From: an uncultured Planctomycetales bacterium
GTDB taxonomy: Bacteria > Planctomycetota > Planctomycetia > Pirellulales > JAEUIK01
Length of the DNA stretch: 26,003 bases
Assembly (NCBI GenBank): GCA_938003525.1
Contig: CALKYM010000058.1
Location: 1 to 26,003, forward strand
Direction: 5' to 3'
The notes under the pieces are model-generated. The model worked only from the letters and a program-made list of their open reading frames with translations. It made no database searches and was not told where the DNA came from. Positions 697 through 22,824 of the stretch are shown here, in pieces (within the stretch, counting starts at the first letter, position 1; the number at the start of each line of letters is the position of its first letter). A program made the position numbers and the translations under genes.

Positions 697-2592
697 ATGC
701 ATGGCTATCGGGTTGAAGTCCCCTCGGCCGACTATTGGCGGCGACAGATCAATTGTCAGCAGGCATGTCCGGTGCACACGGACGCTCGCGGCTATGTGCG
801 AGCCATTGCCGACGGACGCTACGAGGATGCGTACCTGATCGCCCGTGGCCCTAATCCTTTGGCCTCTATTTGCGGCCGGGTATGCGGCGCGCCTTGCGAG
901 GCAGCGTGCCGTCGGGGCGATGTCGACGAGGCGGTCTCGATTCGCGCGTTGAAGCGATTCGTTACCGACAAGTTCGACGAGATCGCGCATCCTTCATCTC
1001 CCGAGTCCCTGATCGGGCGGCTGATCGAACATGCCCGGACGCGAGACTGCGGCCGCACGGAGGAGTTGAGCGCCTACCAGCACTTTCTGCAACAGGGCGC
1101 CGCGCGGTCGAACTCACGCGGCGAAAAGGTGGCGATCATCGGGTCGGGACCAGCCGGGCTGGCAGCAGCGCACGATCTTGCGCTGCTGGGGTTTCGACCG
1201 ACTGTTTACGAAATGGAACCTATTCCGGCAGGGATGCTCACTGTCGGAATACCGCAGTATCGGCTGCCGCGAAAGTTGATCGCGGCAGAGGTCGAGTTCA
1301 TCCGCCAACTCGGTGTCGAATTCGTCTGCAATACGACCGTCGGAGTCGACATTGGATTCGACGAGATCCGGGAGCAACACCAGGCAACGCTCATTGCGAC
1401 CGGGCTAAAGCGGTCGCGAGCGCTGCCTCTGCCAGGCTCGGATGCCAATGGCGTCCTGGGCGGAATCGAGTTTTTGCGGGATGTCGCGCTAGGCCATCCT
1501 ATCGATCTCCGCGGTGACGTCGTCGTGATCGGTGGTGGCAACGTCGCTTACGACGTGGCGCGGACCGTAATTCGCCAGACTTCCGTCGACATCTCACGCA
1601 CGGCGCTGCGCCGCCCCGAAGTACGGCAAGTGCATCTGTGCAGCCTGGAAAGCCTGGAAGAGTTGCCAGCCGACGACATCGAGATCATCGAGGGTGACGA
1701 AGAGGGCGTGCAGCGACACCACAGTCTGGGCCCCAAGGAGATACTCAAGGACGACTCAGGAAACGTGCGGGGCGTGGTCTTTCAACGCTGCGTTCGCGTC
1801 TTTGACGACCAGGGCCGGTTCAATCCGGTCTTCGATACAGAAGAACTGACCACGCTCCATGCAGACACGGTCTTGTGGTCGATTGGGCAAGCGCCTGATC
1901 TGTCATTCATTGGCTCCGATGGCGACGTAAGGCTCACGAAGAACGGTCTCATCGAATGCGATCCGGCGTCTCAGAAAACGACCGCGGCTGATGTCTTCGT
2001 TGCCGGCGATATTTCGTACGGCCCGCGTCTGCTGATCGATGCGGTTGCCAGCGGCAAACAGGCTGCGCGGCGGATCTGCACGTTCATTCGCGGCACGAAA
2101 CTGGTCGAAGAGCCGACGCTCGTTCAGATCAATCTGCCGGACTACAAGCGCGAAGCCGACTACGAAAAACTGCCTCGCACTGCCGTACCCACGCTGAGCG
2201 CTGCCGAACGACAACATAGCCACCAAGCTCTGGTCGAGGTCGGCTTTAGCGAAACGCACGCGGTGACAGAGAGCTGTCGCTGCCTGGACTGCGGCATCAA
2301 CACGATCTTCGACTCTGACAAATGCATCCTCTGCGGAGGCTGCGCCGACGTTTGCCCCGAACTCTGCCTGGAACTGGTCTCGTTGGACCGGCTCGAAGGC
2401 GATCAAGCCTTGACCGAACTCCTAGAGCGCCGCGTCGATCGCGAAGAGCTCGACGCCTGGTCGGCGATCGTCAAGGACGAAACGAAGTGTATCCGCTGTG
2501 CGTTGTGCGCGGAACGCTGTCCGGTCGGAGCCATCACCATGGAGCGCGTGGCGTTCCAAGCCGTGTGGTCGATCGAGAATCAGGCAACCTGA
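697..2592 (+). CDS. GltD/NfnB-like NAD(P)H-dependent FAD oxidoreductase fused to a C-terminal 2x[4Fe-4S] ferredoxin domain. The six-frame ORF opens at 463 with a non-ATG codon; ATG 697 (MHGYRVEV...) is the likelier start.
   Basis: N-terminal Cys-rich GltD-type FeS region (CQQACPVHTD ... ICGRVCGAPCEAACRRG). Rossmann dinucleotide motif VAIIGSGPAGLAAAHDLALLG, and a second one VVVIGGGNVAYDVA. The C-terminus has two ferredoxin CxxCxxCxxxCP motifs (CILCGGCADVCPE, CIRCALCAERCPVG). No signal peptide, so predicted cytoplasmic. ATG at 697 confirmed in the sequence. Confidence 0.8.
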   Translation: MHGYRVEVPSADYWRRQINCQQACPVHTDARGYVRAIADGRYEDAYLIARGPNPLASICGRVCGAPCEAACRRGDVDEAVSIRALKRFVTDKFDEIAHPSSPESLIGRLIEHARTRDCGRTEELSAYQHFLQQGAARSNSRGEKVAIIGSGPAGLAAAHDLALLGFRPTVYEMEPIPAGMLTVGIPQYRLPRKLIAAEVEFIRQLGVEFVCNTTVGVDIGFDEIREQHQATLIATGLKRSRALPLPGSDANGVLGGIEFLRDVALGHPIDLRGDVVVIGGGNVAYDVARTVIRQTSVDISRTALRRPEVRQVHLCSLESLEELPADDIEIIEGDEEGVQRHHSLGPKEILKDDSGNVRGVVFQRCVRVFDDQGRFNPVFDTEELTTLHADTVLWSIGQAPDLSFIGSDGDVRLTKNGLIECDPASQKTTAADVFVAGDISYGPRLLIDAVASGKQAARRICTFIRGTKLVEEPTLVQINLPDYKREADYEKLPRTAVPTLSAAERQHSHQALVEVGFSETHAVTESCRCLDCGINTIFDSDKCILCGGCADVCPELCLELVSLDRLEGDQALTELLERRVDREELDAWSAIVKDETKCIRCALCAERCPVGAITMERVAFQAVWSIENQAT

Positions 2593-2610
2593 AGCGAAAG
2601 CGAGTGACTG

Positions 2611-3105
2611 ATGTCGACTGAACCGGGCGGCGACTTGCAAAGCAGCCAACGCTTCGCGCCACCCCAAGAGCGACGCGACTTCCTCGGGTTAGCCGCCATT
2701 TGGTCGGCAGTCGGAGCGTGCGCGTTTGCTTTGATCGGCGCGCTACGGCTGCCGATGCCGTCGGTGTTTCCAGAGTCCAATCCGAAAGTCAAGCTCGGCC
2801 CTCCGAGTCGGTTTCTTGACGCCGAAGTGACGGCCCTCCCGGAGCAGCGGCTGTGGGTGTATTCGACTTCGGAGGGGATGTACGCCATTTCGGCCGTGTG
2901 TACCCATCTGGGATGCATCGTTGCCAAAGAAGAAGACGGGTACTTCTGCCCCTGTCACGGCAGCCGATTCGACGCGATGGGCAACGTTGTGGCGGGCCCG
3001 GCTCCGCGCGGCTTGGTTTACCTCGAACTATCGATTTCACCCGACGGTCAGTTGGTCGTCGATCGACAAAAGGAAGTCGCCGCCGCCGTTCGCTTGAAAG
3101 CATAG
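2611..3105 (+). CDS. Rieske [2Fe-2S] iron-sulfur subunit of a cytochrome bc-type complex, with a Tat-type signal/TM anchor.
   Basis: Rieske box I CTHLGC and box II CPCHGS, 17 residues apart. N-terminal [25 protein letters not shown] is a twin-arginine motif followed by a hydrophobic helix. The gene starts 19 bp after the upstream gene. Confidence 0.85.
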
Positions 3106-3153
3106 ACGAACCCCATCGGTCAGCTACACGGCTAGTCGACGAGACGGACGAAC

Positions 3154-4707
3154 ATGAACCCCACTATGGCTCCCGAAACGCCTCCCGAGAAGAAGCCCAA
3201 GGCGTTGAGGCGGTTTCGCCGCAACTTGGCTGAGACGCCGCGGCTGTTTCGCGATTCGCTGGTCCGACACGGTCGGCCCACATCGGATCGCAGTGCGTCG
3301 CAGGCCATCTTCACCAACTTCTTCTTGCATATCATTCCGACCCGCATCGATCGCTACTCCCTGCGGATCCGAGCGACGCTGGGCTTGGGCGTGATCACAA
3401 CAGTGCTCTTCCTCCTGCTGACCGGAACGGGGATTGCACTGATGATCTACTACAAGCCCAGCACGGCGGAAGCCTACAACTCGATGAAGGACATTCACTA
3501 CGTCGTGCCAACAGGCCGCTTTATGCGAAACATCCACCGCTGGGCCGCCCACGGCATGGTGGCCTGCGTGTTTCTACATATGGCCCGCGCCTTTTACACC
3601 GGCGCCTACAAGGCCCCGCGCGAGTTCAATTGGGTTATCGGCATGGGGCTGTTCGTGTTGACCCTGTTCCTGAGTTTCACGGGTTACCTGCTGCCGTGGG
3701 ACCAGCTCGCGTTTTGGGCGGTCACCATCGGATCGGAAATCGCGCAATCACCGCGCGAGCTCACTGACGCCTTGGGCATCACGCAATGGTTCGATCCGGG
3801 CGGTGCGCAAAAACACATTTTGCTGGGCGCCAATCATGTGGGCGAAGAGGCCTTGATTCGGTTCTATGTCTTGCACGTGATCGTGCTCCCCTTGGCGACG
3901 ACCGTGCTCTTGGGCGTCCACTTCTGGCGGATTCGAAAAGACGGCGGTCTGACGCGACCTGCACGACCGGTAGTGCACGACCGCATTGTCGCCCAGCAAG
4001 CCCCCGCCAAGACCTATGGACTGATGGCGGTCGTGCGCGGGCGCACGCCGGCTGTGGATCGCGAGATGGCAACGACCGTGCCCGCTTGGCCCAACGCCAT
4101 CTTCGCCATTGCTGCGCTGAGCATGTTGACGATGGCGGTGATGCTGGCCCTGGGACTCGTGCTCGACGCGCCGCTAAAAGAAGAAGCCAACCCGGCCGTG
4201 CCTGAGAATCCTGCCAAGGCCCCCTGGTACTTCCTTGGTTTGCAGGAGCTCGTCAGTTACTCAGCGTTCATGGGTGGAATCGGCATTCCGGCCTTGGTCG
4301 TACTGGGCCTGATGCTGGTGCCGTATCTCGATCGCGAGCGGGAGAACATCGGCGTCTGGTTCGGCGGACGTCAGGGTAAATACGTGTGCCTGTTGTCGGC
4401 CGTGTTCACGGCAGCCGTGGTCGTGGGGATTCTCGCGTTCACCGTGACGCAAGGCTGGCTGCGCAATTGGTATCCCGATATCCCCCAGGTCGTGATCACG
4501 TTTGTGAACCCGGGGACGGTGATGCTGGTGATCTTCGCCCTCTGGTCGTTCGCGATCATGTCGGTCAGCAATTCAACGCGCATGGGTGCGTTGGCAGTCT
4601 TCACTTGTTTCCTGATCGCTTTCATCATCCTGACGTACTTTGCAATCGTGCATCGTGGCCCGAACTGGGATTTCTATTGGTCGCAGAGTCAGTGGCCCAG
4701 GCACTAG
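3154..4707 (+). CDS. Cytochrome b subunit of a bc-type complex. At 517 aa it is a long form with extra C-terminal helices.
   Basis: Helix-B haem-ligand region IHRWAAHGMVACVFLHMARAFYTGAY, which fits the Y.H..RG.Y..Y pattern. LLPWDQLAFWAVTIGSEIAQS segment. PEWY-type Qo motif present as APWYFLGLQE. Many hydrophobic helices through the C-terminus. Gene follows the Rieske gene after 48 bp. Confidence 0.85.
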   Translation: MNPTMAPETPPEKKPKALRRFRRNLAETPRLFRDSLVRHGRPTSDRSASQAIFTNFFLHIIPTRIDRYSLRIRATLGLGVITTVLFLLLTGTGIALMIYYKPSTAEAYNSMKDIHYVVPTGRFMRNIHRWAAHGMVACVFLHMARAFYTGAYKAPREFNWVIGMGLFVLTLFLSFTGYLLPWDQLAFWAVTIGSEIAQSPRELTDALGITQWFDPGGAQKHILLGANHVGEEALIRFYVLHVIVLPLATTVLLGVHFWRIRKDGGLTRPARPVVHDRIVAQQAPAKTYGLMAVVRGRTPAVDREMATTVPAWPNAIFAIAALSMLTMAVMLALGLVLDAPLKEEANPAVPENPAKAPWYFLGLQELVSYSAFMGGIGIPALVVLGLMLVPYLDRERENIGVWFGGRQGKYVCLLSAVFTAAVVVGILAFTVTQGWLRNWYPDIPQVVITFVNPGTVMLVIFALWSFAIMSVSNSTRMGALAVFTCFLIAFIILTYFAIVHRGPNWDFYWSQSQWPRH

Positions 4708-4719
4708 GAATATCGTGCG

Positions 4720-7515
4720 ATGGATGCTCCTCAAGTCACGCGTCTCAAGGTCATCTTGCTCGCCAGCAGTCTGGCGTGTTTGGTGCTCTTGGTAATCGCC
4801 GCCTCGGAAGAAAACCTGCTGGGCGAATGGCAGGGACACCAGCGGGCGTACGCGCGCGTGCTTGCACAGCAGGACAGCGAGGACGGAAGCGCTTCTGCGT
4901 TTAGCATCGAGCCGCGGCAGTTGTTTCTGGCGGATCTGAGCCGCGTCGATCGATGCGTGAGCTGCCATGTCGGCATCGACAATCCGTCGATGCAGAGCGA
5001 ACGCCTGCCACTGGCCAGCCATCCCGGCGACCTGCTCGAACATCATCCCATGGACAGGTTCGGATGTACGATCTGCCACGACGGGCAGGGGCGAGCGACG
5101 GTTGCCGCCGACGCCCACGGCGACTCGCCGCATTGGCCCGAACCGCTCTTGCGCGGCGACTTGGTCTACACGAGTTGCAGCCGGTGCCACTACGAGAATG
5201 ACCTCTACGGTGGCGAGTCGGACCTCTACGGCCAGAACAAGCCGCTCGACTACGTCCGCCAGGGGGAACTAGCCGCCCACGTCCCGGGCGCGGACAACAT
5301 CGCCCGCGGGAAAGCCTTGATGGTCAGCCGCGGCTGCCTGGGCTGTCACAAGTACCGGGCGCGGGGAGGTTCGTTGGGACCGGACATTACGCACGTTGGC
5401 GACAAGACCGTACACGACTTTGACTTCCGTCATGTACATGGTGACTACACGGTCCTCAACTGGCTGGTCACACACTTCAAATCGCCGACGGCCGTCGTAC
5501 CCAACACGGTGATGCCCGACATGGGGCTCTCGGATCAAGAAGCACACGATCTTGCCGAGTACATGATGAGCCTCAAGCGCAAGGAAGCGCCGGCTGAATA
5601 CACGCCGCTGCCGCGGCCGGTCGATGCGACACCCATACGCGGTGAAACGCTCTACACGATGTACTGCTCGGCGTGCCACGGCTCAGATGGCGTCGGCGCA
5701 CTGGTCCGCTCGGCGGAGGAAGCCAAAGCGCTCGACCGGCCGCGTGAGTTACTCACGCCGTCGCTGCGCAATATCGACACATTGGGAGTTTCCAGCGATG
5801 CGTATCTGCGGGCCATCGTTGATCGGGGCCGACCCGGCACCAGCATGCCGGCGTGGGGAGTGGATGGTGGACTGAGCAGCGACGACATCGACTTGGTTGT
5901 GGACTTCATTCGCCGCTGGGAGCCACAAGCTGCCGATCATTCCTACATCTCGGCGACGCGCGGCGATGCCCACTACGGCGGCGCTTTGTTCCGCGCCAAC
6001 TGCGCCGCCTGCCACGGTAGCGACGGGCGGGGTGGCGAAGTCGGGATATCGCTGCGCTCTTTGACGTTTCAGTCCATTGCCAGCGATGAGTTCATCGCTC
6101 AAACCATCCTCCGCGGACGGGCGAACACGGCCATGCCGTCTTGGGCTGAGTTCGACAACCGCGAGGTTAGCGATTTGCTCGCGTACATACGGCAATGGCA
6201 GCCTTTGCGATCCCAGCGGAGTGAAGTCCTCGCCAGCAATGTGCTGGCGTCGAACACCATGCCGCAAGATTCAGTGGCAACCGGGCTCAAGTTGTACCGC
6301 AGCCGCTGCGCCGTGTGCCATGGCGAAGATGGCGAAGGCAAGATCGGGCCGTCGCTCAACAATCAGTCGGTGTTACCAGTCGTCTCCGACGAGTTTCTGC
6401 ACGACACGGTCGTTTTGGGACGTCCCGGCACCGCGATGCCGGCATGGCGACAGCTCAGTTCCCTCGACGTTGTCGATCTGATCGCCTTGCTGCGGAGCTG
6501 GCAGATCAAGCCGGCGCGCGAATTGGATCCGGTTGCCGTGACCGGCGACCCGCAGTATGGAGCGTTGCTGTTCGAAGGCATGTGCGTCAGTTGCCATGGA
6601 CCGAATGCCGAGGGCTCCATCGGACCGCAGTTGTCCAACCCGGTCTTCCTGGCTTCGGTCAGCGACGAAACGCTGTTTGAGTGGATTGCACATGGCCGCA
6701 CAGGCACGCAGATGCGGCCGTTTTTGAAGGGTGAACAGGGAATCGTCGGACTCTCCTCTCCGCAAATCGTGGACATCATCACGTACATTCGGTCGCTACG
6801 TGGCCAACGCCCGATTCACGGGCAACAAATCGGGCTCGGCTTCGCCCCGCGAGGCGAAGTCCTCTATCGCCAGATGTGCGCAAGTTGCCACGGCCCAGAC
6901 GGTGCCGGCGCCACCGGTCCAGCCATACGCAACCCGGACTTCCTGGCGGCCGTATCCGACGGGTTCTTGCGGGCCACCATCGTGCTTGGCCGCGACGGGA
7001 CGGAGATGCGCTCGATGGGCCACGGTGGAGCGGGAATCGTCGAACTGCGTTCCGAACAGATCAACGATCTGGTCGCGTACCTGCGCAGCGCCGAGGACTC
7101 GCAGGACATTGCCCATCGGTTTGTGATCGGTGCGGATCCGAATCGAGGACACACGCTGTACGGCCAGTATTGCGCTGGTTGCCACGGGACCGAAGGTGTT
7201 GGCAATTTCGCACCCGAGTTGAACAACGCCGGCTTTCTTCGGGCCGCCACGGATGGTTACTTACAAGCGACGATTATTCGCGGGCGGCGCGGGACAGCGA
7301 TGCGCCCGTTTGGCGCCGGCCGCGCCGGCCTGGCAGAGCTGCCGCAGCGCGACATCAACGACATTGTCGCGTTCATTCGCCAATGGAGTCCCGATACGCG
7401 TCCGTTGCAGCGCACGGAACCGTTTCCCGAGGTGCCGCGCGAACTTGCCGAACTGCAGCCACCCCTGCGAGCCTCTGAAGGAGTGGTCGGCGCTTCGGGA
7501 AACGGCGCAGAGTAA
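4720..7515 (+). CDS. Membrane-anchored decahaem c-type cytochrome. An N-terminal TM helix precedes a tetrahaem block and six tandem class-I monohaem cytochrome c domains.
   Basis: Ten CxxCH motifs: CVSCH, CTICH, CSRCH, CLGCH, CSACH, CAACH, CAVCH, CVSCH, CASCH, CAGCH. N-terminal hydrophobic helix LKVILLASSLACLVLLVIAA. The last six motifs each sit in a repeat of about 100 aa, of the form G..L(F/Y)...C..CHG.DG ... (T/A)MP(A/S)W or TxMR, which gives a Met axial ligand. The repeat ends in a conserved (Y/F)(I/L)R(S/Q)(W/L) tail. Confidence 0.85.
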   Translation: MDAPQVTRLKVILLASSLACLVLLVIAASEENLLGEWQGHQRAYARVLAQQDSEDGSASAFSIEPRQLFLADLSRVDRCVSCHVGIDNPSMQSERLPLASHPGDLLEHHPMDRFGCTICHDGQGRATVAADAHGDSPHWPEPLLRGDLVYTSCSRCHYENDLYGGESDLYGQNKPLDYVRQGELAAHVPGADNIARGKALMVSRGCLGCHKYRARGGSLGPDITHVGDKTVHDFDFRHVHGDYTVLNWLVTHFKSPTAVVPNTVMPDMGLSDQEAHDLAEYMMSLKRKEAPAEYTPLPRPVDATPIRGETLYTMYCSACHGSDGVGALVRSAEEAKALDRPRELLTPSLRNIDTLGVSSDAYLRAIVDRGRPGTSMPAWGVDGGLSSDDIDLVVDFIRRWEPQAADHSYISATRGDAHYGGALFRANCAACHGSDGRGGEVGISLRSLTFQSIASDEFIAQTILRGRANTAMPSWAEFDNREVSDLLAYIRQWQPLRSQRSEVLASNVLASNTMPQDSVATGLKLYRSRCAVCHGEDGEGKIGPSLNNQSVLPVVSDEFLHDTVVLGRPGTAMPAWRQLSSLDVVDLIALLRSWQIKPARELDPVAVTGDPQYGALLFEGMCVSCHGPNAEGSIGPQLSNPVFLASVSDETLFEWIAHGRTGTQMRPFLKGEQGIVGLSSPQIVDIITYIRSLRGQRPIHGQQIGLGFAPRGEVLYRQMCASCHGPDGAGATGPAIRNPDFLAAVSDGFLRATIVLGRDGTEMRSMGHGGAGIVELRSEQINDLVAYLRSAEDSQDIAHRFVIGADPNRGHTLYGQYCAGCHGTEGVGNFAPELNNAGFLRAATDGYLQATIIRGRRGTAMRPFGAGRAGLAELPQRDINDIVAFIRQWSPDTRPLQRTEPFPEVPRELAELQPPLRASEGVVGASGNGAE

Positions 7516-7569
7516 GTGACCACACGTCCAGAGTAGGCGAGTCAAACAACTACGCGCCAGAACAATCAA

Positions 7570-7595
7570 CGGCGCAGCTCAAGGCGCCGCACTTT
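7570..7595 (+). terminator. GC hairpin with a short T-containing tail in the 150-bp gap between the cytochrome c gene and the molybdoenzyme gene. Candidate partial terminator, attenuator or processing site.
   Basis: CGGCGC-AGCTCAAG-GCGCCG is a perfect 6-bp stem with an 8-nt loop, followed by CACTTT. No long U tract, which is common in GC-rich genomes. Confidence 0.25.
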
Positions 7596-7665
7596 AGGAA
7601 AACGATAAGAAGCACACTTGATGCAGCGGTGAGCGAACACCGAACAGCCCTAAAGGATTCCAGTC

Positions 7666-10398
7666 ATGCCGAAGCAACGAGATCTCTCGCCGTTCGACCG
7701 CCGCGCATTCATGAAGATGGCGGCCACCACCGGGGCGGCTGTCAGCGCCACGTCGCTTTATCCAGAGGAGTTCGTCCAGTCTGCTGCCGCCGCATCGGCA
7801 ACGCCTGCGGCGGGGATCAAGCTCTTGCAGTCTGCTTGTCCTTACTGCGGCGTGGGCTGTGGCACCTTGATCAAAGTTGAAAACGGTCAGGTCGTGGGCA
7901 TGGTGCCCGACAAGAAGCACCCCACCAATCAGGGCATTCAGTGCATCAAAGGGCTCAACGCGCACGAACCCATCTATCGCGATCGACTGACAAAGGTGCT
8001 GGTGCGCAAGGACATGAGCGATCCCCTCCGCGGGCACGTCTCCGGCACCAAGGGCCGCTTCGACGACGACGTGTTTGACGAGGTGTCGTACGAGGAAGCC
8101 GAAGAGATCGTCGCCGAGCGGATTGCTGAGATCGTCCGCGAACGAGGCGGAAACTCGATCGGATTGAACGGCAGCGGTCAGCTAACGATGGAGGCCCAAT
8201 GGATCGAAAACGTCTTGATGAAAGGCGTGCTGGGCAGCAACTCGATCGAGGCCAACGCGCGGATGTGTATGACTTCAGCCGTGACGGGCTACTTTCACAG
8301 CTACGGTTCCGATGCACCGCCCACCAGCTACGAGGACATTGAACAGGCGGACTTCATCACGTTTTGGGGACACAATGCCCGCGAGGCGCATCCGATCCTG
8401 TTTTGGCGCGTGGCCGACCACAAGCAACAGACGGATATTCCCACGCTGGTTGCCGATCCGCGCCGCACGGGATCCGTAATTGGGCTGGAGAACATCAATC
8501 CCCGCAACAGCCTTCACATCCAAACGCTCAATGGCGACATCAGCTATCAAAACGCCATCGCGCACGTACTGTTGACCAAGTATCCCGACGCGATCATGCC
8601 GGAAGACTGGTTGAAGGACAACGTCAACGGATACCGCGAATACATCGATGGAGTGCTCGAACGCTACTCGCCCGAGCAGGTTGTCGAGCGACTTCAACTG
8701 CTCGACCGCGGACGCGTGACGGTGGAGACCATTGAACAGGTCGCGCAGTACTGGGCCGACGCCACGCGCAAGGGGCGACAGCGCGGAAGAGGCGGCGTGC
8801 TTTCCTTCTGGGGTATCGGCTACAACCAGATGCTGCACGGTCAACACAACACGATTAGCATCATCAACCTCCACTTGCTGACGGGCAATCTCGGGCGGCC
8901 CGGCTGCGGCAGCCATTCGCAAACCGGTCAGCCCAACGCCATGAGCGAGCGGCTCATGGGCGGGCTCACCGGACGTTTGCCGTTTAATCGTCCGCTGTCG
9001 GACGACAACTGGCGCGACCACATTGCCGACGAGTGGGGCATCTCCCGCGAGCGACTCAAGCAGACGTCGATCATGCCCAACCCGGGTATGGCGGTTGGCT
9101 TGATGGAACGCGCGCTGAAGGACGACCTGTTGGCCATGTTTTGGATGTACACGACGCATGTGCACATGCCGGATCTGGATACGCTGGTTCGACCGGCGCT
9201 GACCAAGATGTTTTGCGTCGTGCAGGAAATCTATCGTCACGCGCCGAACCTGTTGTACGGCGATGTGATCTTTCCAGCATCGACATGGGGCGAATGGTCA
9301 GGCGGTACGTACATTCAGAGCGAGCGCCGTGTCTACGTGTGCGACGGCACAAACCATCCGCCGGAGAATTGTCGTCCCGATATGGACATGGCGATCGACA
9401 AGACGAAGCTGCTGGCCAAGAAGCTGGGACTCGATGCCGACAAGATCATGCCGTTCGAGAAGAAGATTCGCTCGGGCAATGGCCTCATGGTGTACGATCC
9501 CGAGGAGGTGTTTCGCGCCATTGCGGTAGCCAGCAAAGGCAGCGACGCAGATATGTCGGGGATGATCGAGGTCGAGCAACGCGACGGCATCAGCGTCTAC
9601 GACCAACTCCGCGAATTGCGCGGCGTGCAGTGGCCCGCACCCACCTACGACATCGCACGAGCTGGTGGGACTCCGCGTCGGTACCTGGGCCAGGAAGGGT
9701 GGGCCGGCAAACCGTACGGTGCGTTTCGCCACCCGGATGGCAAGGCCCAGATGAAGCTGTGCGAACAATCGTACGACCGCATCCACGAGATCACCGACAA
9801 GTTGATGCAGTACGGTCATCGCGACCGACCCGGAGCGGGGCCCTACTTCGTCGACGACATTGCGCAGGCCAAAGCAGAAGGCCGCAAGAATCTTCTGGAA
9901 GAAGCCAGGGATGCTGCGCTCACCCCCGAGCTACCAGACCTGGAAGTCTATGCCGACGCAACGCTCGGCTTGGACGACCACAAACGCCAGGACGTCTATC
10001 CGTTCTGGCTGGGACTGGGAATCGTCTACGAGCACTTTCACACGGCCAAGACGATTCGCGGCGCGACAACCCGCAAGCTCGTTCCCGAGCAGTACGTCGA
10101 GATGAGTGTCGGCGACGCGCAGCGCTTCGGGCTTCGAGACGGCGACCCCGTTCGGCTGGTGACGCGGCGCGGGACGTATGAAGCGCGCGTCACGGTCGGC
10201 TTGCAAAGCGAGCTGCGACCCTCCCGGAGCGAGTTGCCCGAGGGCTACCTGTTCAGTCCTTGGAATCTCTCGGTGGCCGATAGTGCTGATCCGACCAAGA
10301 ACCGCTGGCTGGTGAACGCCGTCAGCCATCGGGCCTGGGACCCTGTGAGTGGCCAGGCAGATTTCAAGAAGCTGGCAGCGCGGATCGAAAGGATCTGA
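7666..10398 (+). CDS. Tat-exported bis-MGD molybdopterin oxidoreductase catalytic subunit in the Nap/Nas/Fdh clade. Probably a periplasmic NapA-like reductase, but the substrate is not determinable from sequence.
   Basis: Twin-arginine signal DRRAFMKMAATTGAAVSATS. N-terminal [4Fe-4S] motif CPYCGVGCG ... QCIKG, which is CX2CX3C plus a distal Cys. MopB-type core, 910 aa. C-terminal molybdopterin-binding-like segment VEMSVGDAQRFGLRDGDPVRLVTRRGTYEARV. SD-like AAAGGA lies 9 nt upstream of the ATG. Confidence 0.8.
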   Translation: MPKQRDLSPFDRRAFMKMAATTGAAVSATSLYPEEFVQSAAAASATPAAGIKLLQSACPYCGVGCGTLIKVENGQVVGMVPDKKHPTNQGIQCIKGLNAHEPIYRDRLTKVLVRKDMSDPLRGHVSGTKGRFDDDVFDEVSYEEAEEIVAERIAEIVRERGGNSIGLNGSGQLTMEAQWIENVLMKGVLGSNSIEANARMCMTSAVTGYFHSYGSDAPPTSYEDIEQADFITFWGHNAREAHPILFWRVADHKQQTDIPTLVADPRRTGSVIGLENINPRNSLHIQTLNGDISYQNAIAHVLLTKYPDAIMPEDWLKDNVNGYREYIDGVLERYSPEQVVERLQLLDRGRVTVETIEQVAQYWADATRKGRQRGRGGVLSFWGIGYNQMLHGQHNTISIINLHLLTGNLGRPGCGSHSQTGQPNAMSERLMGGLTGRLPFNRPLSDDNWRDHIADEWGISRERLKQTSIMPNPGMAVGLMERALKDDLLAMFWMYTTHVHMPDLDTLVRPALTKMFCVVQEIYRHAPNLLYGDVIFPASTWGEWSGGTYIQSERRVYVCDGTNHPPENCRPDMDMAIDKTKLLAKKLGLDADKIMPFEKKIRSGNGLMVYDPEEVFRAIAVASKGSDADMSGMIEVEQRDGISVYDQLRELRGVQWPAPTYDIARAGGTPRRYLGQEGWAGKPYGAFRHPDGKAQMKLCEQSYDRIHEITDKLMQYGHRDRPGAGPYFVDDIAQAKAEGRKNLLEEARDAALTPELPDLEVYADATLGLDDHKRQDVYPFWLGLGIVYEHFHTAKTIRGATTRKLVPEQYVEMSVGDAQRFGLRDGDPVRLVTRRGTYEARVTVGLQSELRPSRSELPEGYLFSPWNLSVADSADPTKNRWLVNAVSHRAWDPVSGQADFKKLAARIERI

Positions 10399-10399
10399 C

Positions 10400-11047
10400 A
10401 TGCCAGTCGATCGTCGCTCATTCTTGCGAAACGTAGCCGGTCTTGCCGCCGTGTCGACTGCCGCGGCCGGCACTTCGGGATTGTGGAGCGGAGGTGCGCA
10501 AGCAACAGACGCTCCTCTGCGGCCACCAGGAGCCCTTCCGGAGGATGAATTCCTCTCCACGTGTATCCGCTGTATGCGCTGCGTCGACTCGTGCCCGAAC
10601 CATTGTCTCGAGTCGACGCCTGTCACGGCAGGCGCCCAAATTGCGGGCACGCCGCAAATGCATCCGCGACGTCAGGCGTGCATGTTGTGCAGCCGGGCTG
10701 AGGGTGACTACTTACGGTGCACGGCCGCCTGTCCCACCGGAGCCCTGCGGCCCATCAAGAAAGACATTCTCCAGATTCGAGAGCACGTCCGCATTGGTGT
10801 GGCCGAGATCGATCTGAATCTGTGCTACTCGTACAACAACTATACGTGCGGCACCTGCTTTCATGCCTGCCCGCTGCAAGGCGAAGCCATCACGCTGGGC
10901 CTTTGGGAACGGCCGCAAGTGCATCCCGAGGCGTGCATCGGCTGTGGCCTTTGCGAGCGCGCCTGCATCCGTTACCCGCACGCGATTCGGGTCAAAGCGA
11001 CGGACAGACCGCACCAGCAGGAACCCGCATCGCCCTCTTCGTCATGA
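10400..11047 (+). CDS. Tat-exported NapG/MauM-like periplasmic polyferredoxin with four FeS cluster motifs. This is copy 1.
   Basis: The six-frame ORF opens at 10349. The internal ATG at 10400 sits 2 nt after the upstream TGA, with AAAGGA 6 nt upstream. RRSFLRNVAGLAAV is a Tat motif. Cys motifs CIRCMRCVDSCP, CMLCSRAEGDYLRCTAACP, CYSYNNYTCGTCFHACP and CIGCGLCERAC. Confidence 0.75.
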   Translation: MPVDRRSFLRNVAGLAAVSTAAAGTSGLWSGGAQATDAPLRPPGALPEDEFLSTCIRCMRCVDSCPNHCLESTPVTAGAQIAGTPQMHPRRQACMLCSRAEGDYLRCTAACPTGALRPIKKDILQIREHVRIGVAEIDLNLCYSYNNYTCGTCFHACPLQGEAITLGLWERPQVHPEACIGCGLCERACIRYPHAIRVKATDRPHQQEPASPSSS

Positions 11048-11676
11048 ATATCTCGCGGCGTACATGGTTGCAATTGTTTCGGCGCGGCGTTCGCGGCCTC
11101 GCGTTTGCTGGAGCCTGGATCGCGCTGGCCGTGGCGTTGCGCCGACCTGCGGCGCCGCGACATACGGCGCGACCACGTGTGGACGAACCACAGGAGTTCA
11201 CCTTTCGGCCACCCGGCGCATTGCCGGAATCCGACTTTCTGGCTCGCTGTATCCATTGTTATCTGTGTCAGGACGTCTGTCCGCCCGGGTGCATCTTGAT
11301 GAAGCCCGACACCGAGCCGGACCGCCATACTCCGTACATCACGCCTCGCCTCAAGGCCTGCACGCTGTGTCTGAAGTGCTGCGACGTCTGCCCCACCGGC
11401 GCGCTCACGCGGCTATCGAACAAGCGTGACGTGCAGATGGGCCTCGCTGCGGTGGACGAGACGATCTGCGTTTCGCATCTGCGGACCGGCGCCTGCGGAG
11501 CCTGCTTCACTGCGTGTCCCTTGAGGGGCGATGCGATCACGCAGGGATTGTACAACGCACCGTACGTCAACCCCGAGCATTGCACGGGTTGTGGACTGTG
11601 CGAAGAGGTGTGCATCGTCCCCTATCGAGCCATCCGCGTGTATCCAACGGAACACGTGTCGGAGGGTGTGGCATGA
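11044..11676 (+). CDS. Tat-exported NapG/MauM-like periplasmic polyferredoxin, copy 2.
   Basis: The ATG at 11044 overlaps the upstream stop (ATGA). The product begins MNISRRTWLQLFRRGVRGLAFAGAWIALAVA, a Tat motif plus a hydrophobic region. Cys motifs CIHCYLCQDVCPPGC, CTLCLKCCDVCPTGA, CVSHLRTGACGACFTACP and CTGCGLCEEVC. The listed ORF 10717..11676 is the same frame with a spurious upstream extension. Confidence 0.75.
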   Translation: MNISRRTWLQLFRRGVRGLAFAGAWIALAVALRRPAAPRHTARPRVDEPQEFTFRPPGALPESDFLARCIHCYLCQDVCPPGCILMKPDTEPDRHTPYITPRLKACTLCLKCCDVCPTGALTRLSNKRDVQMGLAAVDETICVSHLRTGACGACFTACPLRGDAITQGLYNAPYVNPEHCTGCGLCEEVCIVPYRAIRVYPTEHVSEGVA

Positions 11677-13322
11677 TAGGCCGCCTGATCCCGCCGATTC
11701 GCCGCACGGTGCAAGTGCTAAGCCTGCTGTTGGTCGGGCTGTTGCCGGTTCTCGCACTGTACACCCATCATCATGAAGCCCACGCGATCGACGACCTTCC
11801 GACCGACGACTGGCGCACGGCGGCGATTCGCACGGTCGATCGCGTCGTGGGCGATGATGAAGGCCGCGAGCATTTGGCCAAAAGCACGCAGGGAACTATC
11901 TGGTCGCTGCGACTCGCGGGATACAGCGTGTCAGATCCGTTGGCGGGTGCTGAGGCGATCGTCACGAGCCGCAGCTTTTACCAACCGCTGATGTGGTCGG
12001 TGCTGCTGCCGATTGTCGCCAGCCTGTTGCTGGGCCGTGTGTTCTGTGGGTGGATCTGCCCGGTCAACACGCTGTTGGAAGTCGTCGACCGTGGCCGTCG
12101 CCTGTTGCGGATTGCCGAAATTCGCCCCAGGGACGTCAGGTTCTCGCTGTGGAACAAGTACCTCGTGCTTGCGCTTGGACTGCTGATCGCTGGCGTCACT
12201 TCCGTGCCGTTCTTGGCTCTGTTCTATCCGCCCGCCGTGCTCAGTCGCGAAACGCATCTGTTCGTTTTCGGGGCGACGTTGGGATTGGGGCTGTACTTCT
12301 TGCTCGCCATTGTCCTGTTTGAACTCTTCGTCAGCCGGCGTTGGTGGTGCCGCTATATGTGCCCAGGCGGCGCGCTGTATTCGCTCTTCGGTCACTTGCG
12401 GGTTGTCCGAGTACGGCGCGACGACGACAAGTGCGTCAAGTGTGGCGAATGCGTCCGTGTCTGCCAGTTCGACCTGCGACCCATGTTGCACCACACTACA
12501 GGCTCTGAGTGCACCAACTGTGCGGCGTGCATCTCGGTTTGCGATTCCGATGCCTTGCACTACAGGTTGACGGCACCGCTCCCCATTCTTCACCCTGATC
12601 GCGCGGCCGTTTCTACAAGAGCCCCTGAGTCCGCCGCGCCGGAGGCGGAGCCGACGGAGGACGATCGACGTTCATCTGCGACATCCAAGGTGCTGCATAG
12701 CGGGCTGGGCCTGCTGCTGGCTTGCTTCATCACGAACCAAGCCCACGCGCACCATATTCTCGGACTGCCACACTACTCCTACAAAGACAACTACCCTCAA
12801 GCGCCGACCCTCGAGTATCCCGCCACGACGGGACCTTACCAGGTGCTGATGACCTGTTATCCAGGCACGCCGGTGCCGGGCGAAGCGTCGACCGTGGCCT
12901 TCTATATCAAGCATATTCAGGGCGACACGCCGTACGCTCAACCGGTAACCATGCGCGTGCTGCAGACCTTCACATTCGGTTCGAGCCGCGAAATCGTCGC
13001 TCCATCGCAGCGCGAGCCCTTCGACAATCAACACCGCTACACGGTCACGTTTCCGCAAGACGGCGAATACATTGTCGAGTTGACCATGGATGTCGAGGGC
13101 CGGCCGGAAGTGATTCCGTTCCTGGTGGTGTGCGGCAATCCTACAGCGACCAAGTCGATAGTCGTCTTCCTGGGCGGAGGGCTGGCCGTGTTCCTGGTTT
13201 CTGTGCGCGCGATCAAGAAAAAGCGTGAGCGCCGCGCCACAAAAGCGCGGTCACGCGGCAAGCTGACAAACGAGACAACTTCTTCCGCCGAACAAGATAC
13301 AGCCTCGCCGCTGGCTCACTGA
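11673..13322 (+). CDS. NapH/MauN-like integral-membrane iron-sulfur protein with two CX3CP motifs and two [4Fe-4S] motifs, plus a C-terminal extension of about 230 aa ending in an extra TM helix.
   Basis: The ATG at 11673 overlaps the upstream stop (ATGA), with GGAGGG 7 nt upstream. TM helices are present. GWICPVNTL and WWCRYMCPGGALYS are CX3CP motifs. CVKCGECVRVCQFD and CTNCAACISVCDSD are ferredoxin motifs. The C-terminal region (HHILGLPHYSYKDNYP ... VVCGNPTATKSIVVFLGGGLAVFLVSVRAIKKKRERR) has a soluble domain flanked by hydrophobic helices. Confidence 0.7.
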   Translation: MIGRLIPPIRRTVQVLSLLLVGLLPVLALYTHHHEAHAIDDLPTDDWRTAAIRTVDRVVGDDEGREHLAKSTQGTIWSLRLAGYSVSDPLAGAEAIVTSRSFYQPLMWSVLLPIVASLLLGRVFCGWICPVNTLLEVVDRGRRLLRIAEIRPRDVRFSLWNKYLVLALGLLIAGVTSVPFLALFYPPAVLSRETHLFVFGATLGLGLYFLLAIVLFELFVSRRWWCRYMCPGGALYSLFGHLRVVRVRRDDDKCVKCGECVRVCQFDLRPMLHHTTGSECTNCAACISVCDSDALHYRLTAPLPILHPDRAAVSTRAPESAAPEAEPTEDDRRSSATSKVLHSGLGLLLACFITNQAHAHHILGLPHYSYKDNYPQAPTLEYPATTGPYQVLMTCYPGTPVPGEASTVAFYIKHIQGDTPYAQPVTMRVLQTFTFGSSREIVAPSQREPFDNQHRYTVTFPQDGEYIVELTMDVEGRPEVIPFLVVCGNPTATKSIVVFLGGGLAVFLVSVRAIKKKRERRATKARSRGKLTNETTSSAEQDTASPLAH

Positions 13323-13446
13323 AGCCGGGCAAACGAAACAACGCGAAACGCAAGCCCGCACTGGTGACAGCTCGCCCCGTTCAGATCTGACAGACGCGAC
13401 ATTCGCAACAACAGCCTAAGACCGACGCCCTACTGAGAACCGACCG

Positions 13447-15447
13447 ATGCGGGCCCTTGTCAAGATATTCTTGCCGTATTCTGTATTGTTGGCTGTCGCC
13501 GTCGCGGTGTACGTGTCGACATTCCGCGCCCCTTCGCAGGCGAGTTCTGCTCCCGAGCGCGGCGAGGAATCGACGCCGCTCGATCCGGTGTGCCACATGG
13601 AAGTCAACCCGAGTTGGCAACATCAGGCGACGCACGAGGGCGAAGTCTACTGGTTCTGCACCAGTCGTTGTCGCGACCGCTTCGTCGCTTCCCCCGACTC
13701 ATTTCTCGGCGAGCGCTGCGTCGTGTGCAACGACTTGGTGGAAGCCGATGCGTCGTTGCCGGCGACCTATTTGGGCAAAACCTACCACCTCTGTTCTCAA
13801 GAGCATCGCCGCGAGTTCAAAGCCGACCCGGCGGCGTTCTTCATGCACACCATGTGGGGCATCCCTCCCTGGTTGTACTACGGATCGATTGCCGGTGTGC
13901 TCGTCGTCAGCTTCGGTGTTTTCGAGCGACGGGATCGAAAGACTTCATCGGGAACCCTTTCGGTCTCACCGTCGGGCGAGCTGACTCTGGACGATAAACC
14001 TAACACGTCGTTTGTACGCAGCGCTGCGGAACGAATCGATCTGCTACGCAGTCCACTGCTTCGCGCGGTCTTCACATCGCGGCGGCTGCGCTTTTGCGCG
14101 CAGGCCACGATGGTTCTGCTCTTCTTTCTGATCATTGCCGCCGGGCTGTTTGGCAATCAGAACCCGGCATTGAACATCGCGCCCATTCTGACATGGACCG
14201 TCTGGTGGGGCGGCCTGGTTGTGTTGATCATGTACGCCGGCAAGGCCTGGTGTTACATGTGCCCCTGGGACGCCGTTGCCGGCTGGATGGCGAAACTTAG
14301 ACTTTGGACCAAGACCGATGAGCGGCTCGGGCTTGATCTCAAGTGGCCGCCCGCCGTTCGCAACATCCTCGTCGCCACGTTGCTCTTCGTCGGTCTGACC
14401 TGGTTCGAACTTGGCTTCGGCGTGACGATGCGCCCGCGTGTGACTGCCTATCTGGCGATCGCGATGTTGCTGATGGCCATCGTCTCCGCGTTTTTGTTCG
14501 AGCGCCAGAGTTTCTGCAGATACGGCTGTCTGGTGGGCCGCGTGAGCGGCCTGTATGCCATGTTCTCCGGCGTTGAGGTCCGCGCCCGCGACGAAGCGGT
14601 TTGTCGCACGTGCGAGGGAAAAGAGTGTGTGCGCGGTAGTGAAAACGCCTATGGCTGTCCGACGTTTCTTTATCCGGGCAAGCTCAAAACCAACACCTAC
14701 TGTATTCAATGTACCGAGTGCATTCAGGCCTGCCCGGAGGACAATCTGACGATCAATATGCGTCCCTGGGGGGCCGACTTGGCCGCCGAACATCGGCCGC
14801 GGCAGGACGAGGCCTATCTGGCTCTGCTGATGCTGGCAATCACGGGCTTTCACGGGCTGACCATGACGCCCAACTGGGCGCTGCTCACCGGCTGGATGAG
14901 CGAAGTCTTTTCACTGGGACGCGTGATTGCCTTTACGCTCGGAATGACCTTGCTGCTCTTGGCGCCGATCGCCGTCTACGCCGTGTTGATTGGAGTGTCT
15001 CACCGCTTGGCGTTGGGCACTCGACACATCGAGAGGCGCGACCTCACCTACGGCGACTACTTCATTCGCTACGCGTACGCTTTGCTGCCCATCGCGCTCT
15101 TCTACCATCTCGCACACAATCTCGAACACCTGCTGCTGGAAGGGCCGAAGGTTGTGGCGCTTTTTTCCGATCCGTTCGGCTGGGGCTGGAATCTGTTCGG
15201 CACGAGCGATTGGGTGGTGCCGCCACTCGTCTCGCTCGAGGCACTGTGGATCGTACAAGTGCTGCTCGTGCTGGTGGGCCACGTCTACAGCCTGTGGGCG
15301 GCCCAACGCACGAGCGTCAACATCTTTGGCAGCCACAAGGTCGCGTTCCGCAGCCAACTCCCGATGCTCGTCGGCATGATTGCCTTCAGCGTGTTCAGCC
15401 TCTGGCTGCTCAAACAGCCCATGGAAATGCGGACCAGCGCCATGTGA
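13447..15447 (+). CDS. Membrane polyferredoxin of the CcoG/FixG/NapH family with two N-terminal YHS/TRASH metal-binding domains. Putative metal (cupric) reductase.
   Basis: N-terminal signal/TM MRALVKIFLPYSVLLAVAVAVYV. YHS-type motifs DPVCHMEV...YWFCTSRCRDRF and CVVCNDLV...YHLCSQEHRREF. Multiple TM helices. WCYMCPWD and FCRYGCLVG cysteine motifs. C-terminal ferredoxin motif CIQCTECIQACPEDN, plus CRTCEGKECV. Gene follows the NapH-like gene after 124 bp on the same strand. Confidence 0.7.
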   Translation: MRALVKIFLPYSVLLAVAVAVYVSTFRAPSQASSAPERGEESTPLDPVCHMEVNPSWQHQATHEGEVYWFCTSRCRDRFVASPDSFLGERCVVCNDLVEADASLPATYLGKTYHLCSQEHRREFKADPAAFFMHTMWGIPPWLYYGSIAGVLVVSFGVFERRDRKTSSGTLSVSPSGELTLDDKPNTSFVRSAAERIDLLRSPLLRAVFTSRRLRFCAQATMVLLFFLIIAAGLFGNQNPALNIAPILTWTVWWGGLVVLIMYAGKAWCYMCPWDAVAGWMAKLRLWTKTDERLGLDLKWPPAVRNILVATLLFVGLTWFELGFGVTMRPRVTAYLAIAMLLMAIVSAFLFERQSFCRYGCLVGRVSGLYAMFSGVEVRARDEAVCRTCEGKECVRGSENAYGCPTFLYPGKLKTNTYCIQCTECIQACPEDNLTINMRPWGADLAAEHRPRQDEAYLALLMLAITGFHGLTMTPNWALLTGWMSEVFSLGRVIAFTLGMTLLLLAPIAVYAVLIGVSHRLALGTRHIERRDLTYGDYFIRYAYALLPIALFYHLAHNLEHLLLEGPKVVALFSDPFGWGWNLFGTSDWVVPPLVSLEALWIVQVLLVLVGHVYSLWAAQRTSVNIFGSHKVAFRSQLPMLVGMIAFSVFSLWLLKQPMEMRTSAM

Positions 15448-22345: not shown

Positions 22346-22351
22346 TGTCCC

Positions 22352-22822: not shown

Positions 22823-22824
22823 TC

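Follow-up and report, generated by a model that had tools for sequence, protein, structure and literature searches.

What does a block of nine respiratory genes do when it joins an NAD(P)-binding flavoprotein, a Rieske/cytochrome b (R/b) complex and a periplasmic molybdoenzyme of nitrate-reductase type, and are these genes one system or neighbours by chance? The question is raised by positions 697-15447 of a 26,003-nucleotide stretch of DNA from an uncultured Planctomycetales bacterium (GenBank assembly GCA_938003525.1, contig CALKYM010000058.1, forward strand), which is referred to as the window throughout, and in which the nine genes are numbered g1 to g9 in their order of occurrence. We found that they are a conserved unit and not a chance juxtaposition. 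The block is probably a single, horizontally mobile operon for a periplasmic Nap-like nitrate reductase system that is fed by an anammox-type Rieske/cytochrome b complex with an NAD(P)-binding flavoprotein.

Conservation and probable horizontal spread of the nine-gene block

In a survey of one genome per GTDB species, at least 535 loci encode a relative of the molybdoenzyme g5, and the block is kept in hundreds of genomes, including at least one isolate. Gene order was determined by tblastn with all nine proteins in the best 80 of these loci (g5 identity 67-92%). The genes g1-g4 were present upstream of g5 in 48 of the 56 loci that had at least 7.4 kb of upstream sequence (a 9-kb span upstream of g5 was examined), and effectively in 51 of the 56 when two loci with an insertion within g1-g4 (L005 and L007) and one with a frameshifted g1 (L002) are included. 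Likewise, g6-g9 followed g5 in 47/50 loci with enough downstream sequence. The initial annotation had named a lack of co-location in relatives as evidence that would refute its reading; the bc-type and the molybdoenzyme/NapGH genes lie together in the great majority of the related genomes, as they do in the window. The sources of the best 80 loci were Planctomycetota (Planctomycetaceae, Gemmatales, Pirellulaceae, Phycisphaerae), Wallbacteria, Deltaproteobacteria/Myxococcota, Binatia, Latescibacterota, Gemmatimonadales, Hydrogenedentota, Elusimicrobiota and Eiseniibacteriota, and the conserved block occurs in at least 10 phyla (Planctomycetota, Wallbacteria, Myxococcota, Deltaproteobacteria, Binatia, Latescibacterota, Gemmatimonadota, Hydrogenedentota, Eiseniibacteriota and Deferrisoma). 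All nine are present in the cultured species Deferrisoma camini (GCA_000526155.1).

The nine genes have also diverged together, as the pairwise identities of all of them were correlated across 27 complete clusters (Spearman rho 0.49-0.88). Moreover, the phyla interleave in g5 identity: the Deferrisoma enzyme is 78% identical to that of the window and some planctomycetotal enzymes are only 68% identical to it, which indicates that the block was transferred horizontally as a whole.

All nine genes are co-oriented on the plus strand, with intergenic gaps from g1 to g9 of 18, 48, 12, 150, 1, -4, -4 and 124 bp according to the open reading frame (ORF) listing and inspection of the junctions. ATGA overlaps are found at g6/g7 and g7/g8, and the largest gap, of 150 bp, lies between g4 and g5 at the boundary between modules. 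The initial annotation had described nine tightly spaced genes in three modules, namely a flavoprotein, a Rieske/cytochrome b core and a periplasmic molybdoenzyme/Nap-like part, and both the junctions and the Pfam and NCBIfam domains of the nine genes agree with this description. A promoter and terminator scan of positions 1-16100 gave no signal above the shuffled expectation and is silent for or against co-transcription. The inverted repeats in the leader and in the two larger gaps were unremarkable, and a search for FNR/CRP-type boxes returned 10 matches against 5.1 expected by chance, none of them upstream of g1.

Flavoprotein, Rieske protein and cytochrome b of anammox type

The first gene, g1 (697-2592, plus strand, 631 aa), encodes a predicted cytoplasmic NfnB/GltD-like, NAD(P)-binding flavin adenine dinucleotide (FAD) and iron-sulfur (FeS) flavoprotein with a C-terminal ferredoxin domain (Pfam Fer4_20, Pyr_redox_2 and Fer4), in which no signal peptide and no transmembrane (TM) helix was predicted. 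Its best PDB matches were NfnB-like modules of Stn/Nfn enzymes, followed by NfnI, GltD and DPD, and its score against PRK12771 was 405 bits, below the cut-off of 516. Seventeen cysteines are conserved in g1, six in the N-terminal part at 98% and eleven in the C-terminal part at 100%, and these would suffice for about four FeS clusters.

The Rieske [2Fe-2S] protein g2 (2611-3105, plus strand, 164 aa; Pfam Rieske) is predicted to be exported by the twin-arginine translocation (Tat) pathway and anchored in the membrane, and its RRDFL, CTHLGC and CPCHGS-x-F motifs are invariant in 54 sequences. Its best PDB match was 9rk4 (E 1e-19), which is Kuste4569 of the anammox bacterium Kuenenia, and its third was 9rk3, which is Kustd1480 (PMC12954380). 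In the Rieske box, the serine that raises the midpoint potential is kept and phenylalanine stands in place of tyrosine, as in Kustd1480, the Rieske potential of which is +335 mV (PMC12954380).

The cytochrome b gene g3 (3154-4707, plus strand, 517 aa; Pfam Cytochrome_B) is a fusion of a cytochrome b6-like part with four TM helices and a subunit-IV-like part with five TM helices after residue 300, and the Kuenenia subunit IV was also modelled with five helices (PMC12954380). The following features of a b6-type Rieske/cytochrome b complex are present: both Rieske boxes, the four haem-b ligands His128, His142, His241 and His256 with the b6-type 14-residue spacing in helix D, and the xPWY motif of the quinol oxidation (Qo) site, which is the APWY variant in g3 as in Kuenenia. 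In addition, g3 matches the NCBIfam models ExtP and ExtQ, of which ExtP is the best at 240 bits. His59 is invariant (54/54 sequences) and aligns with His43 of Kuste4571; in AlphaFold3 models, that histidine ligates an additional haem b between the monomers, on the way to the flavoprotein (PMC12954380). Arg261, in a WRIRKDG motif, is also invariant, and further invariant or nearly invariant residues among the 54 orthologues are His39, His133, Cys485 and the last residue, His517.

For a comparison of the whole module, the soluble domain of Kuste4569 was rebuilt from the alignment, which led to an orthologue in Kuenenia sp. and to its locus (L083), whose proteins were compared with those of the window by BLASTP. 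The identities were 33.5% over 620 aa (E 4e-98) between g1 and the Kuste4570 orthologue (residues 12-621 of g1 align with 18-572), 38% over 147 aa between g2 and the Kuste4569 orthologue, 44.6% over 260 aa between the N-terminal part of g3 and the orthologue of Kuste4571 (cytochrome b6), and 37% over 121 aa between the C-terminal part of g3 and the orthologue of Kuste4572 (subunit IV-like). The motif ENPAKAPWYFLGLQE is the same in g3 and its Kuenenia orthologue. On these alignments, the module matches Kuenenia R/b-3 subunit for subunit and is of anammox type, and the homology to anammox NAD(P)-linked complexes that the initial annotation had put forward is borne out for g1, g2 and g3. In a phylogenomic analysis, Dibrova et al. 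noted that outside anammox bacteria, too, the genes of one cytochrome b subfamily "in many other cases" adjoin those for NAD(P)-binding FeS oxidoreductases (PMC5600118), and an R/b module with a flavoprotein outside anammox bacteria is therefore not new in itself.

Decahaem cytochrome

The membrane-anchored decahaem cytochrome c encoded by g4 (4720-7515, plus strand, 931 aa) has a predicted N-terminal TM helix and exactly ten CxxCH motifs, which are invariant. Three haems of bis-His type are found in the N-terminal part, where H101, H109 and H133 are invariant, and the rest of the protein consists of seven class-I domains, each with an invariant distal methionine. Residues 75-133 are 39% identical over 59 aa to the orthologue of Kuste4573, a multihaem cytochrome c. 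The seven His/Met haems would fit a high-potential branch and thus nitrate as the acceptor.

A distinct NapA-like molybdoenzyme

The molybdoenzyme g5 (7666-10398, plus strand, 910 aa), a candidate nitrate reductase, carries a Tat signal and the Pfam domains Molybdop_Fe4S4, Molybdopterin and Molydop_binding, and would bind molybdenum through a bis-molybdopterin guanine dinucleotide (bis-MGD) cofactor. Its RRAFMK motif, the cysteines C58/C61/C65/C93 and the pair C201-M202 are invariant in the orthologues. Aligned to Desulfovibrio desulfuricans NapA, g5 keeps Cys140-Met141 (C201-M202), Asp155, Gln346 and Arg354 and differs in the pocket at Met308, which is Ile384, and at Glu156, which is Ala217; all these active-site positions, including Ile384 and Ala217, are invariant or nearly invariant in 81 sequences. 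The scores of g5 lie below every curated NapA, Nas and Fdh cut-off of NCBIfam (for the NapA models NF010055 and TIGR01706, 306.7 bits with a cut-off of 904 and 287.8 bits with a cut-off of 930.55), and g5 is equidistant from the NapA and Fdh hidden Markov models (HMMs). A canonical NapA representative, which scored 1546 bits against the NapA model, is 35% identical to g5, and g5 and NapA differ in size by about 100 residues. With the Cys-Met, Asp, Gln and Arg residues of a NapA-type active site, g5 belongs to a separate NapA-like branch.

Close relatives of g5 are numerous, the best 120 matches being 72-92% identical to it. In an exhaustive search of 1.8 billion cluster representatives, which also yielded the canonical NapA named above, the nearest relatives outside the family were 52% and 49% identical (L086 and L088). 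The operons of these two encode a class-I dihaem cytochrome c and proteins of NapH-like and NapG-like type, and one of them also has TatA/TatC and molybdenum cofactor (Moco) genes. The small dihaem cytochrome c occupies in them the position that the R/b and decahaem module takes in the g5 family, which suggests that this module replaced it as electron donor. In two Phycisphaerae metagenome-assembled genomes (MAGs), an ORF of about 410 aa without a family match lies between g5 and g6 (L036:4914-6143 and L050:9314-10549).

Formate dehydrogenase was rejected as an identity for g5: the Cys-Met pair argues against that enzyme, which has (Se)Cys-His. Arsenite oxidase was rejected as well on the basis of the cysteine ligand, the Tat signal of g5 itself and the bc type of the Rieske protein. 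Nitrate is the substrate that the NapA-type residues, the Tat signal, the NapG/NapH partners, the Nap-like operons of the nearest relatives and the N-oxide-type neighbours of the cluster point to. Alternatively, g5 may reduce another high-potential oxyanion (selenate, chlorate, tellurite or an iodate-like compound), or may oxidise a periplasmic substrate and send the electrons up the haem chain. Its distance from canonical NapA, its position midway between the NapA and Fdh models, the difference in size and the two altered pocket residues would all allow this, and ExtP, the best NCBIfam match of g3, is the cytochrome b of a Geobacter operon for selenite and tellurite reduction; the YHS metal-binding domains of g9 are also left unexplained by a nitrate reductase. 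We nevertheless regard a substrate other than nitrate as unlikely, as the Cys-Met, Asp, Gln and Arg residues are the signature of NapA/Nas, whereas Fdh would have (Se)Cys-His, as NapG-like and NapH-like proteins are encoded alongside, and as genes for N-oxide or nitrosative-stress proteins recur beside the cluster (hcp, YtfE/DnrN-like hemerythrin, Rrf2, HAO-family cytochrome).

NapG- and NapH-like proteins

Two genes for NapG-like ferredoxins with four [4Fe-4S] clusters each follow g5, namely g6 (10400-11047, plus strand, 215 aa), which is predicted to be Tat-exported, and g7 (11044-11676, plus strand, 210 aa), with a Tat-type signal. A GTG start of g6 at 10349 would run into g5, and the ATG at 10400 puts the Tat motif at the N-terminus. 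Both proteins have 16 invariant cysteines, and the twin-arginine motif is conserved in g6 and present as RR in 69-70 of 73 g7 sequences. With the NapG and MauM/NapG models (NF007012 and TIGR00397), g6 scored 134 bits for NapG (cut-off 269) and 113.5 bits for MauM/NapG (cut-off 178.85), and g7 scored 106.6 bits for MauM/NapG and 104.8 bits for NapG, both below the cut-off. Two napG genes are also known from Bacillus azotoformans.

The NapH-like membrane FeS protein g8 (11673-13322, plus strand, 549 aa) reached 140.5 bits with the NapH/MauN models (TIGR02163 and NF007013; cut-off 213) and contains two invariant CX3CP motifs and eight invariant cysteines for two [4Fe-4S] clusters. To this core is added a periplasmic C-terminal domain of about 130 aa (window 12690-13322) between two TM helices, with an invariant HH-x5-H motif (H360, H361 and H367). 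The last protein, g9 (13447-15447, plus strand, 666 aa), combines an N-terminal YHS/TRASH domain (Pfam YHS; two YHS/TRASH Cys motifs), a NapH-like polyferredoxin core (a weak NapH match of 43.7 bits, with the CX3CP variants CYMCP and CRYGC) and a C-terminal multi-TM domain (window 14800-15447). Invariant in g9 are C269/C272, C357/C361 and eight FeS cysteines and, in the C-terminal domain, H469, H554-x2-H557-x3-H561 and H612. The C-terminal domains of g8 and g9 had no Pfam match at relaxed thresholds, and an AlphaFold2 model of g9 (predicted local distance difference test 68.6) had no Foldseek match in the PDB with E <0.001; a PDB match is lacking for either C-terminal domain, and they may bind metal or haem. 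No Nap-like protein of the block reaches the curated NCBIfam cut-offs. CcoG was rejected as an identity for g9, which the initial annotation had called CcoG-like: no HMM match to CcoG/RdxA/FixG (TIGR02745) was found for g9, and the weak match to that model belongs to g8 (38 bits, cut-off 316.7).

The cytoplasmic FeS domains of these NapH-like proteins, and not cytochrome b, could in principle be the partners of g1, so that electrons from NAD(P)H would cross the membrane to NapG and NapA. One locus has g1 directly after g8 and no Rieske or cytochrome b gene nearby (L078), and the role of the cytoplasmic [4Fe-4S] clusters of NapH-type proteins is unclear (PMC6195509). However, g1 adjoins the Rieske gene in about 50 loci, the adjacency of flavoprotein and Rieske genes recurs in L084 and L085, and the g1 homologue in Kuenenia is a subunit of R/b complexes, all subunits of which were reported to co-migrate (PMC12954380), with no NapH encoded in the R/b locus L083. 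We thus hold a partnership of g1 with the NapH-like proteins to be highly improbable.

Proposed function and direction of electron flow

From the gene content, conservation, homology and cofactor-binding residues given above, we infer a substrate, a physical association and a direction of electron flow for the block. Menaquinol would be oxidised at the Qo site. The first electron would pass from the Rieske cluster to the membrane-anchored decahaem cytochrome, first through its three bis-His haems and then through its seven His/Met haems, and from there, perhaps with the NapG-like ferredoxins as intermediates, to the NapA-like Mo-bisMGD enzyme, which would reduce nitrate to nitrite in the periplasm. 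The second electron would travel through haems bP and bN, perhaps also through an extra haem ligated by a pair of His59 residues at the dimer interface, and onward through the approximately four FeS clusters of g1 to FAD, where NAD(P)+ would be reduced. The pull of nitrate (+420 mV) would thereby pay for NAD(P)H from quinol, as has been proposed for the Kuenenia R/b complexes. Together with g6 and g7, g8 and g9 may serve as auxiliary electron routes from quinol to the periplasm or in the reductive activation of the reductase; in Epsilonproteobacteria, the role of NapGH is debated (PMC6195509). All modules may form a single supercomplex.

Several observations weigh against this scheme. In g1, the equivalent of Arg511 of Kuste4570 is a glycine, and g3 has Gly77 (Gly in 47/54 sequences) at the position of the haem cN cysteine, which is Cys35 in PetB and also Cys in Kuenenia. 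The altered pocket residues of g5 and its scores below the curated cut-offs were described above, and no NapB or NapD homologue was recognisable in the block with Pfam and NCBIfam. The NapGH-like pairs could supply the electrons alone. For most host lineages, which are presumably heterotrophic, it is not obvious why NAD(P)H should be made from quinol, and D. camini has been described as a reducer of Fe(III) and S0 and not as a nitrate respirer. Finally, the molybdoenzyme/NapGH module occurs without an adjacent R/b module in five loci (L031, L064, L070, L074 with L075, and L078), and the R/b and flavoprotein module occurs without a molybdoenzyme (L085) or with a different one (L084), so that the modules are separable.

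This separability bears on whether independent systems have merely been transferred together, namely a NapA-like enzyme with its own NapGH and a separate NAD(P)-linked R/b complex whose decahaem cytochrome feeds oxidases or nitrite/NO reductases. The molybdoenzyme, NapG and NapH genes stand by themselves also in L088, and in L086 they are accompanied only by a dihaem cytochrome c; anammox bacteria, like L085, have the R/b complex and flavoprotein without the molybdoenzyme and NapGH; and the 150-bp gap falls exactly at the boundary of the g4 and g5 modules. On the other hand, about 90% of the loci, from at least 10 phyla, retain the order g1-g9 with correlated divergence, the g4-g5 gap contains no terminator-like site above chance, the dihaem cytochrome c at the R/b and decahaem position of the relatives suggests a replacement of the electron donor, and the Nap of Epsilonproteobacteria needs Qcr in addition to NapGH. 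Two unconnected systems are, in our judgement, distinctly unlikely.

The module without a molybdoenzyme in L085:8161-15126 (JGI metagenome 3300020118) comprises GltD-like, Rieske, cytochrome b and subunit IV-like genes, a 1040-aa multihaem/class-I cytochrome c and CcmF. The locus with a different enzyme, L084:8253-16798 (Armatimonadota MAG GCA_016183865.1), encodes, in the module order of the block, a GltD-like protein, a Rieske protein, a cytochrome b6, a subunit IV-like protein and two multihaem cytochromes, followed by a 794-aa MopB enzyme that is 28% identical to g5, has serine at the position of the Mo-ligand cysteine and is degenerate in its N-terminal FeS motif; upstream there is a gene of NapG-like type. 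It thus seems that the periplasmic molybdoenzymes with which NAD(P)-linked R/b modules pair are of several different kinds.

The same genes could also run with g1 in reverse. NAD(P)H would then be the electron donor, its electrons would pass through the FeS clusters to the n-side haems and the quinone-reducing (Qi) site, and the quinol would be re-oxidised at Qo, which would make the block a proton-motive NAD(P)H:nitrate oxidoreductase without bifurcation. GltD/NfnB-type modules are the NADPH input in glutamate synthase and DPD, both of which are among the PDB matches of g1, all steps would be thermodynamically downhill, the hosts are mostly presumed heterotrophs with NAD(P)H to spend, and a functional n-side site would be in keeping with the invariant Arg261 of g3 and with its conserved n-side region. 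However, g2 resembles the high-potential anammox Rieske proteins, which is not the expectation for a simple menaquinol Q-cycle (PMC12954380), the loss of the haem cN cysteine removes a cofactor of the b6-type quinone-reducing (Qn) site, and such an enzyme would be redundant with ordinary NADH dehydrogenases. We consider NAD(P)H as donor rather unlikely. Bifurcation, with NAD(P)+ reduced from quinol, is preferred because the Rieske signature resembles that of anammox proteins, the His/Met chain is of high potential, His59 is conserved and haem cN has been lost, and we put it forward tentatively, its chances falling somewhat short of even. The favoured explanation as a whole, general reading and mechanism taken together, appears to us evenly balanced between right and wrong. 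Its most far-reaching form, a quinone-based bifurcating menaquinol:nitrate/NAD(P)+ oxidoreductase that makes NAD(P)H without proton-motive force and is the first of its kind outside anammox bacteria, spread through at least 10 phyla, is doubtful.

Comparison with known systems

The R/b complexes of Kuenenia stuttgartiensis, R/b-3 (Kuste4569-4574) and R/b-2 (Kustd1480-1485), were compared with the block locus-wide for R/b-3, through the R/b-3-type locus L083, and by the Rieske protein Kustd1480 for R/b-2. They share with it a Rieske protein, an NAD(P)-binding FeS flavoprotein, a b6-like cytochrome b, a five-helix subunit-IV-like protein, a membrane-anchored multihaem cytochrome c and a periplasmic N-oxide enzyme encoded directly downstream, together with 33-45% identity in g1-g3, the His43/His59 position and the APWY Qo motif. 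In contrast, the flavoprotein gene comes first here, cytochrome b and subunit IV are fused and the haem cN cysteine is absent; the cytochrome c here is a decahaem protein in which class-I domains hold seven of the haems and homology is confined to the region of the first ones; the terminal enzyme here is NapA-like with two NapG/NapH-like pairs, whereas an HAO-like octahaem protein takes its place in Kuenenia; and the hosts here are not anammox bacteria.

Nap respiration in Campylobacter jejuni and Wolinella succinogenes requires both Qcr and NapGH (PMC6195509), which makes it a strong experimental precedent for the general reading of the block as a Nap-like system fed by an R/b complex. This epsilonproteobacterial system (napAGHBFLD) resembles the block in its Tat-exported periplasmic NapA-type enzyme, its NapG and NapH, its menaquinol-oxidising Rieske/cytochrome b supplier and its lack of NapC. 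It differs in that Qcr is encoded elsewhere, with a dihaem cytochrome c and no NAD(P) flavoprotein, in that it includes NapB, NapD, NapF and NapL, all of which the block lacks, and in that g5, g6 and g8 lie below the curated NapA, NapG and NapH cut-offs. The nap cluster of Caldithrix abyssi (Cabys_2564-2557) contains Rieske/cytochrome b genes and has epsilon-Hao adjacent to it (PMC5317091). By its description, it is like the block in the combination of Rieske and cytochrome b genes with napA, napG and napH, in a multihaem cytochrome proposed as mediator and in the HAO-family cytochrome beside the cluster, which is also found in D. camini; however, no NAD(P)-binding flavoprotein is reported, the cytochrome is the tetrahaem NapM and not a decahaem protein, and napG and napH are single.

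To the NfnB/GltD family (NfnI, Stn and the glutamate synthase beta subunit), g1 is similar in the FAD site, in the NAD(P)H fold and in having a pair of [4Fe-4S] sites near the N-terminus, and the NfnB-like modules that it matches best in the PDB come from bifurcating enzymes. Unlike these proteins, g1 is extended by a C-terminal domain, in which 11 cysteines are invariant, has no NfnA or GltB partner and would be attached to a membrane cytochrome b. The Nap-like operons L086 and L088 resemble the block in their molybdoenzymes, which are 49-52% identical to g5 and whose genes are flanked by those for NapG-like and NapH-like proteins and a class-I cytochrome c, as well as by genes for Tat and Moco functions. 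They differ from it in the small dihaem cytochrome c that replaces the R/b, flavoprotein and decahaem genes and in having one NapH-like gene each and no YHS protein. L088 has one NapG-like gene, and L086 has one downstream of the molybdoenzyme and a NapG/F-like ferredoxin gene upstream.

Each component thus has a precedent, in the anammox R/b complexes, the Qcr-dependent Nap or the Caldithrix nap cluster. The combination of an NAD(P)-linked R/b complex with a decahaem cytochrome, an enzyme of a distinct NapA-like branch and pairs of NapG-like and of NapH-like proteins, in which YHS domains are carried by one NapH-like protein, is apparently undescribed: no description of the nine-gene arrangement was found in the open-access papers, in which absence is not proof. 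The initial annotation, which knew of no characterised arrangement of this kind, was overstated in view of the precedents for its parts (PMC6195509, PMC5317091, PMC5600118).

The block ties an R/b complex to an identifiable high-potential reaction, that of a Nap-like reductase, and to a culturable host. Should the nine genes indeed function together, they would offer a tractable system in which to test the bifurcation hypothesis, would define an unnamed and widespread NapA-like branch, and would add evidence for energy-conserving Nap respiration through bc-type complexes. In metagenome surveys, the g5 branch is probably mis-annotated as "selenocysteine-containing dehydrogenase" or similar. From 2013 onward, quinol bifurcation has been proposed as the way in which the anammox NAD(P)-linked Rieske/cytochrome b complexes produce NAD(P)H. 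Anammox bacteria are slow-growing and without genetic tools, and we know of no exergonic partner reaction for R/b-2.

Genes around the clusters

Among the 80 loci, 26 have a gene for an Rrf2-family regulator of about 150 aa next to the cluster (in 21 it lies upstream in the orientation of the cluster, in 3 it is divergent and in 2 it lies downstream), for example immediately upstream of g1 at L006:2356-2862; only the superfamily model was matched, with scores below the NsrR and IscR cut-offs. A YtfE/DnrN-like hemerythrin gene lies beside the cluster in 9 loci and moaA in 6. Rrf2 and hemerythrin genes, which are common beside orthologous clusters, were not found in the window. In two Planctomyces MAGs, hcp (hydroxylamine reductase/hybrid cluster protein, 660 bits) is inserted between the Rieske and cytochrome b genes. 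D. camini (L081) encodes an octahaem HAO-family cytochrome with 8 CxxCH motifs that is 27% identical to the orthologue of Kuste4574. These recurrent neighbours (Rrf2, hemerythrin, moaA, hcp, HAO-family cytochrome and MobA/MobB) point to N-oxide chemistry.

The hcp insertions are 2.7 kb long (L007:2560-5141 and L005:2199-4770) and also hold a gene without an NCBIfam match that is globin-like by eye and another that is macro-domain-like by eye. In D. camini (L081:721-2814 and 21323-22429), the genes for the HAO-family cytochrome and for a bacteriohemerythrin lie upstream of the cluster in divergent orientation, and MobA/MobB-type and DsbD/thioredoxin genes lie downstream. The flanking genes of the window, at 16049-17455, 17494-20265 (minus strand), 21674-22075, 22352-23322 and 23459-24568 (minus strand), appear unrelated to the cluster, and the flanking products are a Planctomycetota-typical DUF1501 protein, a 923-aa CarboxypepD_reg protein, a DUF1330 protein, two CBS-pair proteins and an SPFH/band-7 protein.

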